The notes beneath the pieces were generated by a model that was not told the origin of the DNA, did not search any database, and was given only the letters and a program-made list of their open reading frames with translations. Positions 35,421 through 59,870 of a stretch of 64,000 nucleotides of DNA are shown here, in pieces (position 1 is the first letter of the stretch; every line of letters begins with the position of its first letter). The stretch comes from Squalus acanthias (taxonomy: Eukaryota), in the NCBI GenBank assembly GCA_030390025.1, contig CM059432.1, forward strand, positions 42,162,001 to 42,226,000. The letters are read 5' to 3'. The translations under genes and the position numbers were made by a program.

Positions 35421-35679
35421 GGTTTATGATTCCCAGATTAATCTTTCACTCCTTGTCACAATTCAAGATTTTTGATAATTTTTTTCTTCAAGTAAAGGAC
35501 TTGTTAATAAGCTATGTCTAGGTGTTGTGTTTTAAAGCAAAGTGAATTTGCTGTTTAAAAAAAAAACAGGCTGCAGGCATTGAAGATGCATATTAAAGCC
35601 AGATGAGTCAGTGTGTGAAATGTTGCCGCTTACAGTCTATTTCAAACTGATACAATGAAAGCTAATTGTCTTACCCCAA

Positions 35680-35757
35680 GCTAGGATGTCCTTTTCTCAT
35701 TTTGAGAATAGAAGGCGAGCTAGGATGTCCTTTTCTCATTTTGAGAATAGAAGGCGA
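35680..35757 (+). repeat. Perfect 39-bp tandem duplication
   Basis: GCTAGGATGTCCTTTTCTCATTTTGAGAATAGAAGGCGA x2. Confidence 0.95.
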
Positions 35758-36003: not shown

Positions 36004-36762
36004 GGGCTAGAAATTCGGCTGCTTTGCGCCTCCCGTTAGCGCCTGCAGGGGGTGCTAACGGGGCGCTAAGGGGTTACTGGCCGGGCACGGCGAAATCAGC
36101 GATGCACGCGATCTTCCCTGGCGATTTTGCGCTGGCGCTAAGACTTACCGCCTCGCTCTGTTGCGCCCCGTAGATCGTGACGTCATCCGGTGCGCAGCAC
36201 GCCGTTATCACCCCAGATCTTAAATTTGTTTCTGCCACCTGCAGCATCGCCGGGCAACAACAACGGCAGCTGCAGGAAGTGTTGTCACCGTGGATGGCCG
36301 CTTGGGGAGCGCTAATTAAAGGCAGTGGTGGCCAGGTAGGGCAAAATTTATTTATGTCCCCATTCTGGTGTTTTTTGATTTTTTTTGTACCCAGCAATTG
36401 CTTAGCCCTGCACTCTCTTAGAGTGCTTGGGGCTGCAATGCGCGTATCGCAGGTGCCATCGCCCAACAGACACAGCCTGAGGATTCCTTCAACGCAGCAT
36501 TGGCCCTTCCCTTTAAGGAAGGGAAGGAGCCTGTAAAACTGGCAGCGCTGCACAGAACATTGTTCAGCGCTCTGCCGCTACCGCCCCCTCACTCCCTTTA
36601 GCGCTCTAAGGGAAGTGGTAGTGCTTGATCTAGCACTCCACTTCCCTCTTAGAGCGCTAAAGCGGAAGTTCCCGGCAGATTCAAATGTTTTTCGCCCGGC
36701 GATACTTTTGTGCTCCCGCAAAAGTTATCACCCCAAATGGGGCGCTACACAATTTCTAGCTC
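36004..36762. mobile_element. Harbinger-type MITE
   Basis: CTA|GGGCTAGAAATT ... AATTTCTAGCTC|CTA. Confidence 0.85.
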
Positions 36763-36968
36763 CTAGTCTGGCAGAGTCAACACTGATTTATGAAAGGGAA
36801 ATCATGTTTGACAAATCTAATAGAGTTTTTAGAGGTTATAACTAGCAGGGTAAATAAGGAGAACCAGTGGATGTGGTGTATTTGGATTTTCAGAACGCAT
36901 TCAATAAGGTGCCACACAAGAGGATATTACACAAAATTAGGGCTCATGGGATTGAGGATAATATATTA

Positions 36969-37109
36969 CATAGGAAATACAGCACAGAAACAGACCATTC
37001 GGCCCAATCAGTCCATGCCGGAAAACATTCAAGCCAGGTATGAGTTAAACATACAATCTTTTGATCTGTAGTCAGATGTGTTATCCATTGCGCCACTGGC
37101 CCAGGCTTC
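36969..37109 (-). mobile_element. tRNA-Arg/CR1-tail chimeric retroposon (SINE-like)
   Basis: Minus strand: GAAGCCT + 73-nt tRNA + AATGTTTT + CR1-type tail (GGGCCGAATGGTCTGTTTCTGTGCTGTATTTCCTATG); removal restores ATATATTA|GCATGGATTGAG of the host CR1. Confidence 0.8.
37030..37102 (-). pseudogene. tRNA-Arg(ACG) pseudogene (anticodon now ACA)
   Basis: GGGCCAGTGGCGCAATGGATAACACATCTGACTACAGATCAAAAGATTGTATGTTTAACTCATACCTGGCTTG is colinear with vertebrate tRNA-Arg(ACG); several changes at CpG sites; B box broken. Confidence 0.9.
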
Positions 37110-38226
37110 GCATGGATTGAGGATTGGTTAACGGACAGAAAACAGAGAGTAGGAATAAATGGGTCATTTTCGGGCTGGCAGACTGTAACTAGTGGGGTAC
37201 CACAAGGATCGGTACTTGGACCTCAGCTATTTACAATCGAGTGTAATGTATCCAAGTTTGTAGACGATACAAAGATAGGTGGGAAAGTAAGTTGTGAGGA
37301 GGATGCAAAGAAGTTCCAAAGGGATAGTGACAGGTTAAGTGAGTGGGCAAGAACATAGCAGATGGAATATAATGTGGAGAAATGTGAAGTTATCAACTTT
37401 GGTCGGAAAAATAGAAAAACTAAATATTTTTAAATGGTGAGATATTGAGAAATATTGGTATTCAGAGGGAGCTGGGTGTCCTTGTATGTAAATCACTGAA
37501 AGGTGTAAAGACCTTTTTTCTGACCTCTTTAATTATTTTAATGGTTATCATAAATCTGTGTCCTTTGATACTGTCTCACTGACCACAGTAAACAATCTGT
37601 TACTATTTACCTTATCATAATCCCTCAACATCTTGAATATTACGTTTGTGCACAAAAGAATACATGAAAATAGAGTCCTTTACCACATAATTAAACAGAG
37701 AAAATAAACATTTCCATTGAAAAAACAATATTTCGTTTTTAAAATGTGATTCCTGAATATGTTCTCCATAGACCACAATAATTTAATAACACAGGAACTT
37801 AGACCAAATAGATTGGAAAATTGATTAGAATTTTGCTGATGTTGATGCCATATGGCTCTTTTGAAATCTCTACTGGACAGGCTTCATTGATTCAATGGAA
37901 ACTTAGCGCTCTAATTTGCTTTTGATATCAACAGCTCTGTCAGTCTGTCTTTATTTTGAAGTAAGCACAAGAGAAATTCTTTCTAAGATCCTTTTTCTCC
38001 AATATATGGAAGGAGAATTCTTTGGCTAGCGTATATACCTTTGGCTCTTTGGCTCTTTGCTGCACTCTATGGTCATGATTAACTGTGGCAAAGACTACAA
38101 GCAGGTGACCTACTACCAGGTTTCTTCCAATGCAACATTTGAGCCAGCTGCAAGACTTCATGAAAGTTTGGTTTTCATTTGCAACCCACCCACTCCTCAG
38201 TGCAGCATGGACTGACCTGTGTGCAG

Positions 38227-58186: not shown

Positions 58187-59870
58187 ATACAGAAATACGA
58201 GAAAACCAAGGGTGTGGCGAGAATGAGGAACTTAAAGAAATTATTATTAGTAAAAAAACAGTACTAGCAAAATTAACGGGACTAAAAGTCGATAAATCCC
58301 AAGGACCGGATGACCTACATCCGAGGGTTTTGAAAGAGGTGGCCATTGGGATAGTGGATGCATTGGTTGTCATCTTCCAAAATTCTATAGATTCTGGAAT
58401 GGTTCCTGCAGATTGGAGGATAGCAAATGTAACCCCGCTATTTAAGAAAGGAGGGAGAGAGAAAACGGGGAACTACAGACCTGTTAGCCTCACATCAGTA
58501 GTTGGGAAAATGCTGGAATCTATTATAAAGGATGCAATAACTGGGCACTTAGAAACTAATAGTAAGATTGGGCAGAGTCAACATGGATTTATGAAAGGGA
58601 AATCCTGTTTGACAAACCTATTGGAGTTCTTTGAGGATGTAACTAGTGGAGTAGACAAAGGGGAACTGGTAGATGTGGTGTATCTGGATTTTCAGAAGGC
58701 CTTCGATAAAGTCCCACACAAGAGGTTGGTGAAAAAAATTAGGGCGCATGGAATTGTGAGTAATATACTAGCATGGATTGAGAATTGGTTAACAGACAGA
58801 AAACAAAGAGTAGGGATAAACGGGTCTTTTTCAGAATGGCAGGCTGTGATTAGTGGGGTACCATAAGGATCAGTTCTTGGGCCCCAGCTATTCACAATCT
58901 ATATCAATGATTTGGATGAGGGGACTAAATGTAACATTTCCAAATTTGCTGATGACACAAAGCTAGGTGGCAGTGTCAGTTGCGAAGAGGATGTGAAGAG
59001 GCTTCAAGGGGATCTTGACAGGCTCAGTGAGTGGGCGAGAACATGGCAGATAGAATATAATGTGGATAAATGTGAAGTTATCCACTTTGGTAGAAAAAAC
59101 AGAAAGGCAGAGTATTTGCTAAATGGTGAAAGATTGGGGAATGCAGATGCTCAAAGGGACTTGGGTGTCCTTGTACATGAGTCACTGAAAGTGAATGTGC
59201 AGGTGCAGCAAGCCATTAGGAAGGCAAATGGTATGCTGGCCTTTATTACAAGAGGATTTGAGTGCAGGAGTAAAGAAGTCTTACTCCAATTATATAGGGC
59301 CTTGGTGAGACCACACCTGGAGTACTGTGTACAATTTTGGTCTCCTTACCTAAGGAAGGATATACTTGCCATACGAAGGTTCACGAGATTGATTCCTGGG
59401 ATGGTGGAACTGTCGTATGAGAAGAGATTGAGTAAACTAGGCCTGTATTCTCTTGAATTCAGAAGAATGAGAGGGGATCTCATTGAAGCATACAAAATTA
59501 TTACAGGGCTTGATAGGGTGAATGCTGGGAGGATGTTTCCCTTGGCTGGGGAGTCTAGAACCAGGGGCCACAGCCTCAGGATAAAGGGTAGGCCATTCAG
59601 GACTGAGACGAGAAGAAATTTCTTCACACAGAGGGTGGTGAATCTTTGGAATTGTCTACCCCAGAGGGCTGTGGAGGCTCAGTTATTGGGTATACTCAAA
59701 ACAGAAGTCGATAGATTTCTGACTAGTAAAGGCATCAAGGGATATGGCGATAGGGCCAGTGAATGAAGTTGAGGCAGAAGATCAGCCATGATCTCATTGA
59801 ATGGCGGAGCAGGCTCGAAGGGCCGAATGGCCTATGCCTGCTCCTATTTCTTATGTTTTTATGTTCTTAC
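58187..59870 (+). mobile_element. CR1 LINE, 1.7-kb 3' portion with nearly intact RT
   Basis: KSQGPDDLHPRVLKE..NYRPVSLTSVVGK..YLDFQKAFDKVPH..GVP*GSVLGP..FADDTKL..; stop at 58864; CTTATG tail. Confidence 0.95.

Follow-up and report, generated by a model that had tools for sequence, protein, structure and literature searches.

SINEs are widely assumed to be born from a tRNA joined to a LINE tail, but with stringent LINEs, CR1 among them, the first products are seldom found before they amplify. In 2004, Schmitz reportedly described mammalian retropseudogenes that L1 had made from precursor tRNAs, without a LINE tail (the tailless class); a precursor template is said to imply nuclear recruitment. 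Chimeras of U6 RNA and LINEs are known as U6-L1, U6-L2, U6-RTE, and one unresolved U6-CR1 case (PMC4476161, PMC6789731), and those with L2- and RTE-clade LINEs are covered in the available parts of PMC4476161. In such chimeras, a full-length sense Pol III RNA ending in about four T is placed on a truncated LINE 3′ end in one insertion. As far as the available part of PMC6789731 describes them, U6/L1 junctions occur throughout L1 and at no motif. Human tRNA/LINE-1 chimeras, with the tRNA co-inserted 5′ of the LINE, are rare (21 loci), and are mostly antisense halves with 9–19-bp duplications that were read as twin priming (PMC13174262, available part). The stringent non-LTR reverse transcriptase of R2 makes end-to-end template jumps to tRNA and U12, including in vivo jumps from the RNA 5′ end onto the 3′ end of mature, CCA-bearing tRNA-Lys and tRNA-Gly (PMC3414825, available part). 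The bird SINEs TguSINE1 and PittSINE are amplified families with common tail diagnostics in which a tRNA head sits directly on a CR1 tail with a hairpin and a microsatellite; their proposed origin is a tRNA-CR1 chimera made by template switch (PMC5729268, available part). HE1, SacSINE1, and the CmiSINEs of cartilaginous fish have a tRNA-derived head, a LINE-related tail, a body domain (V, Deu, or CORE), and high copy numbers (PMC3747384, PMC5499810, available parts). The word "tRNA" is absent from the main text of PMC13343379.

A 141-bp insert in the window (the whole 64,000-nt stretch of Squalus acanthias DNA analyzed) joins an apparent tRNA-Arg(ACG) precursor to a CR1 tail, and two further tRNA/CR1 chimeras in the assembly use the same tail base. 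As in U6/L1 chimeras, a full-length small RNA and a truncated LINE share one orientation, with the RNA on the 5′ side. Unlike in those, the small RNA is an unprocessed tRNA, the LINE is CR1, and the truncation point does not vary (three of three at one base among the 31 positions searched). The heads are full-length, sense, and followed by a trailer, unlike most human tRNA/LINE-1 chimeras; the jump proposed here starts from a 3′ hairpin and ends on a precursor, unlike that of R2. The direct placement of a tRNA head on a hairpin-bearing CR1 tail is shared with TguSINE1 and PittSINE, but the chimeras described here are independent single copies with a terminator before the tail. The pre-tRNA retropseudogenes share the precursor template, but are driven by L1 and carry no LINE tail. 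The insert has no body, which sets it apart from the cartilaginous fish SINEs as they are described. In the literature outside subscription papers, repeat databases, and supplements, no description was found of pre-tRNA/CR1 chimeras that recur with their junction fixed at the hairpin base. The features of the locus are as follows.

36969–37109, minus strand: whole insert (141 bp), made of leader, tRNA head, trailer, and CR1 tail.
37103–37109, minus strand: 7-nt leader, resembling but not identical to the eight bases upstream of the array tRNA-Arg(ACG) gene.
37030–37102, minus strand: 73-nt tRNA-Arg(ACG)-derived head, full-length, without CCA, CpG-decayed.
37022–37029, minus strand: 8-nt pre-tRNA trailer with four T (T4, a Pol III terminator) at its end; six of eight positions equal those of the array gene's trailer.
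36969–37021, minus strand: CR1 tail, the final 53 nt of the LINE family, with a hairpin and the start of the terminal repeat, beginning at the shared junction base.
36980–37020, minus strand: predicted 3′ hairpin in the tail, with a 9-bp lower stem, an internal loop, and a 6-bp upper stem.
36965–36968, minus strand: 4-nt microhomology (TAAT) between the CR1 terminal repeat and the target, the likely priming site.
36769–36968, plus strand: left side of the host CR1 ORF2 fragment, 81% identical to the copy at 58571–58770; RVT_1 profile 71–97.
37110–37503, plus strand: right side of the host CR1 ORF2 fragment, colinear with uninterrupted copies; RVT_1 profile 101–135.

The sequence-only reading had described a four-module minus-strand insert within a CR1, and every module is where it was placed: the trailer (37029–37022) ends in four T, and the CR1-type tail, put at about 50 nt, measures 53 nt (37021–36969). 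The host is a plus-strand CR1 ORF2 fragment (36769–37503), older than the tail donor and of another family; the RVT_1 profile matches on its two sides are under the Pfam cut-off. Excising 36969–37109 restores the reverse-transcriptase frame of the host, gap-free at the site against two uninterrupted copies in the window, and the same comparison shows neither a target duplication nor a deletion. A blunt join is one known target-site outcome, and CR1-type duplications peak at only 3–5 bp (PMC4245944, available part). Because the family's terminal repeat goes on with TAAT in 28 of 30 loci, the Arg locus among them, and the target has the same letters, the tail's right end can be placed only to within 4 nt or a little more. 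Public contigs from four sequencing runs over 36600–37040 were mostly CR1 paralogues, with the last bin covered in X1 only. Among the matches listed, no contig piece spans the junction and no run is an RNA run. The Arg locus is almost certainly inert.

The head matches Rfam RF00005 over the whole model (1–71 of 71) with 37.5 bits (gathering threshold 29, E = 4.6e-06). It had been called a complete tRNA-Arg(ACG)-like sequence without CCA; its length and the missing CCA stand, and the sequence is now seen to be decayed: it departs from the intact array gene at 9 of 73 positions, and CpG sites account for 6 of these changes. Among them are changes in the anticodon and at the two CpG bases within the B box. 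The head lacks the intact anticodon, stems, and B box of a functional tRNA-Arg(ACG) gene. ARAGORN calls it tRNA-Cys because of this decay, which reached the anticodon. The other changes are one unpaired stem change and a paired 52/62 change, which leaves the T stem able to pair and may have been inherited from a parent gene that was itself a variant. CpG sites are altered at five of six positions in the head and at neither of two in the tail (P 0.11). Non-CpG divergence is alike in both (3/61 and 3/49), as one event would predict.

Intact tRNA-Arg(ACG) genes lie in 1235-bp Arg-Met-Ala tandem arrays on contigs C50, C462, C463, and C8 of the 3.7-Gb assembly. Leader and trailer of the insert together equal those of the array gene at 10 of 15 positions (P 0.001–0.004), and the similarity ends at the expected start and end of the Pol III primary transcript; the leader alone is not significant (4/7 ungapped, P 0.07–0.13). 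A search for a tRNA-Arg(ACG) locus with the exact flanks of the insert had been suggested as a check. Pattern searches of the assembly found only the similar flanks of the array genes, with no gene carrying the exact leader and none carrying the 52/62 T-stem pair. The exact trailer has five matches in the assembly, one an array variant and three without a tRNA, and none is a gene with that trailer. The parent gene would thus appear to be lost, diverged, or unassembled, which leaves a gap in the argument. The DNA searches for the array genes and for the tail scored 40 of 1077 and 40 of 1453 candidates, which are not copy numbers. At least 28 units of the array lie on C50, with an Ala anticodon that differs by unit (TGC, CGC). 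The 1235-bp arrays, with tRNA-Arg(ACG), tRNA-Met, and tRNA-Ala (loci L002–L030 and L096), are long on C50, C462, and C463, and also lie at 36.0 and 37.47 Mb of C8. A second array with a period of about 1.25 kb (L136:7444-9395, G000:C8 at about 37.41 Mb) encodes tRNA-Ala(AGC), with weaker Thr(AGT) and Arg(CCT) calls.

The tail comes from the very 3′ end of a LINE that is abundant in the assembly, with 29 other loci at 93–96% identity among the matches listed. Most of these run upstream into a common 3′ UTR, and in four (L036, L040, L041, and L045) ORF2 lies directly upstream; these ORF2 remnants are 40–56% identical to that of the host CR1. We take the donor to be a CR1 from its ORF2 motifs. 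About three long copies in 200 kb suggest that the donor family has tens of thousands of copies. The 5′ arm of the predicted hairpin begins at the second base of the tail, which places the junction one base before it. The same fold is predicted in all three chimeras (z −1.75, −2.89, and −1.31), and across 30 tails only one-sided changes occur in the hairpin. Support for the predicted hairpin is modest. In related zebrafish LINEs, such a 3′ hairpin is bound by the ORF2 protein and required for retrotransposition (PMC4176376, available part).

The second chimera has a full tRNA-Ala(AGC) with an 11-nt trailer ending in T4 (L102:1421-1560, G000:C9:60928899, plus strand; Rfam 41.4 bits). The third carries a full tRNA-Glu(CTC), whose 8-nt trailer likewise ends in T4 (L107:1463-1598, G000:C10:14580851, minus strand; Rfam 46.2 bits). 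The Arg, Ala, and Glu units abut the identical CR1 tail nucleotide, one base before the 3′ hairpin, and none of the three tRNAs carries an added CCA. Their tails have no private substitution in common, which argues for three independent events. The sequence upstream of the Ala and Glu heads contains nothing from the donor family, and at the Arg head the host closes without a scar, so the tRNAs did not land inside longer family copies. The Glu unit is flanked by a 5-nt repeat, which may be a target duplication and would leave an 8-nt leader; the Ala unit has only chance-level 4-mers. No parents of the Ala and Glu trailers were found, and the 20 10-kb stretches examined around the C8 arrays gave only tRNA-Ala(AGC) genes that are 83–84% identical to the Ala head and have a different trailer. 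One further candidate was rejected: at L103/L057 (G000:C2975:8018), T4 from the CR1 endonuclease region meets the same tail base without a tRNA, where 0.7 such cases are expected by chance. Its downstream side is no obvious continuation of the host.

The choice offered by the sequence-only reading, a one-off chimera or a minimal SINE, missed a third possibility: with Ala and Glu at the same base, the Arg insert appears to be no lone accident and to belong to a recurrent, site-specific class of chimera. The finding of no exact-flank gene and no second Arg copy had been set down in advance as a sign of two independent adjacent insertions. Both absences were found, but the conclusion does not follow, because two other tRNAs share this tail and its junction base.

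An assembly pattern search for T4 directly before the first tail base gave 3 matches, and 16 with at most one mismatch. Four of the 16 have a perfect T4, three of them with tRNAs and the fourth in line with chance; at the remaining 12, the junction is free of tRNA sequence. A control scan of 31 junction positions, from 8 nt inside to 22 nt before the tail base, used T3 and a relaxed B box and gave exactly three matches (Arg, Ala, and Glu), all at the same base. The chance of one base for all three is about 0.001 if positions are equally likely, a figure that rests on n = 3, with two of the chimeras first found via a pattern fixed at the shared base, and that becomes less extreme should the hairpin base be a 10-fold hotspot for all copies. 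There may also be chimeras with longer tails, whose junctions would lie more than 22 nt upstream.

Simulations that assume exhaustive pattern scans and random flanks translate the 12 independent non-tRNA matches (L115 and L116 counted once) into about 150–275 plain copies for each position at the hairpin base, compared with about 16–27 for each position elsewhere. At the hairpin-base rate, the B-box and 31-position scans were expected to give about 11–12 chance matches, and 1 was observed. Plain tail-only copies thus appear, in this model, to pile up about 10-fold at the hairpin base. Of 29 tails, two begin no more than 2 nt away from it; the query favored one of the two. Stopping or cutting thus seems to be common at the hairpin base in general, with a pre-tRNA picked up in roughly 1–2% of events there; if so, the specificity lies with the hairpin and not with the tRNAs. 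L115 and L116 (G000:C3773:220007 and 221719) are a tail-only copy starting from the hairpin base that was duplicated with its flanks, 1.7 kb apart and 85% alike.

The insert had been put forward as a candidate nascent SINE, for which many copies of the junction were expected. The Arg junction, the leader, and the decayed head each occur once in pattern scans of the 3.7-Gb assembly. The junction pattern gave 52 matches, of which only the insert's own locus is true (30 checked by BLAST for the head, 22 by the printed match); the other 51 are mostly another repeat, with a few plain tails. Most of them (L062–L091) belong to an old, diverged dispersed repeat, which we take to resemble a Deu-type SINE body. 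The decayed-head pattern found no second Arg copy in the assembly, and a B box plus tail pattern found the own locus and one chance match without a tRNA (L099). The insert shares with SINE2 elements a tRNA-derived head and a 3′ tail common with a partner LINE. It lacks their many dispersed head-tail copies and, judged from its sequence, Pol III read-through from head into tail. The B box of the head carries two changes, and T4, a Pol III terminator (PMC4494074, available part), separates head and tail. A transcript of the unit would stop there without the recognition tail, which would make the unit a dead end. By these scans, the Arg insert is not a SINE family, and no described SINE family matching it was found in the literature outside repeat databases. 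A body-less tRNA plus CR1 SINE is an already known kind of element (TguSINE1 and PittSINE; PMC5729268, available part).

The junctions are probably best explained by a CR1 reverse transcriptase that halts where the 3′ hairpin of its own RNA begins, at the 5′ base, and from there switches to the U tail of a tRNA that has yet to be processed. Priming would occur on the CR1 terminal repeat through the 4-nt match observed at the target. The predicted hairpin would then be copied, perhaps while bound by the ORF2 protein, as reported for related LINEs (PMC4176376, available part). One base past the hairpin, where the junction is seen three times and simulation places the pile-up, cDNA synthesis would halt or the RNA would end. 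An end-to-end jump without microhomology would take the enzyme to the UUUU end of a nuclear pre-tRNA, which would be copied to its 5′ end, and the product would be joined bluntly to the target, as observed at the Arg locus. The result would have SINE architecture and be a dead end, with Pol III expected to stop at T4; it would later decay as methylated DNA, in keeping with the CpG pattern. The earlier proposal that a precursor tRNA was copied after the CR1 reverse transcriptase had started holds for the joining of precursor and tail in one event, given the flanks (10/15), the transcript-like ends, and the divergence. For the joining itself, a jump and an RNA ligation are inseparable from DNA alone. 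Also counting against the jump are the small sample of three, the lack of an exact parent gene in the assembly, the lack of a target duplication around head and tail at the Arg locus, and the uneven CpG decay of head and tail.

Under ligation, a cut at the hairpin base would release the end of the CR1 RNA, an RtcB-type reaction would join it to the pre-tRNA U tail before reverse transcription, and the chimeric RNA would then be inserted normally; this route has been shown for U6/L1 (PMC6789731, available part). It is the main rival account, though an unlikely one. The fixed junction fits cleavage by a nuclease, as does the apparent excess of tail-only copies at this base, but no U6 or other Rfam RNA lies next to the tail in the 17 loci scanned. 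Pol III primary transcripts have a 3′-OH end bound by La, which counts against ligation. The orientation, the full-length small RNA, exactly four T, and the lack of microhomology are all as in U6/L1 chimeras; RtcB, however, requires a 2′,3′-cyclic phosphate, and U6/L1 junctions are scattered along L1, unlike the fixed CR1 junction (PMC6789731, available part).

Two other accounts fit poorly. It is improbable that a short CR1 copy received tRNA-gene DNA or a retrocopy at its 5′ edge, independently or during repair, even with the target duplication absent at the Arg locus, no exact-flank gene in the assembly, Arg arrays 4.7–6.2 Mb away on the same contig, and extra 5′ nucleotides common in fish L2 inserts (PMC4245944, available part). 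The insert ends coincide with primary-transcript ends within the 1235-bp array unit, three isotypes share one orientation and one base, and the host rejoins without a spacer. Slightly more improbable still is a low-copy, body-less SINE lineage with a minimal tail and swapped tRNA heads, as proposed for TguSINE1 and PittSINE. In birds, head swapping did leave different heads on one identical junction, with the hairpin tail complete (PMC5729268, available part). Here, each head was found once in assembly pattern scans, T4 separates head from tail, and the tails have no common diagnostic change, against four common to the bird SINEs in the same source.

With stopping and jumping at the hairpin as the preferred reading, the three chimeras likely show how SINE-like hybrids arise, while they themselves look like dead ends. 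They make this step of SINE birth testable, with a predicted start of CR1-SINE tails and with precursor, not mature, tRNA as the substrate; a further prediction is that the inherited T4 terminator eliminates most newborn units. A broader idea, held tentatively and at somewhat less than even confidence, is that the CR1 3′ hairpin has a stop or cut point built into its 5′ base, from which the reverse transcriptase passes time and again to Pol III primary transcripts. If true, ready-made units of a tRNA head and a minimal recognition tail would arise with a fixed junction, one weakened terminator from an active SINE. Body-less CR1 SINEs would be able to arise from them directly, and identical tail starts could occur under different heads without a common SINE ancestor.

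Rfam microRNA matches near 36600 and in L114 are under their cut-offs and were rejected. A GC-rich repeat at window positions 36005–36765 adjoins the left end of the host CR1 and has internal palindromes, including perfect 15-bp arms at 36596–36662. Parts of it are multi-copy in public contigs, and its end-to-end similarity, seen by eye, suggests a putative non-autonomous DNA transposon. Window positions 35679–35756 hold a perfect 39-bp tandem duplication.
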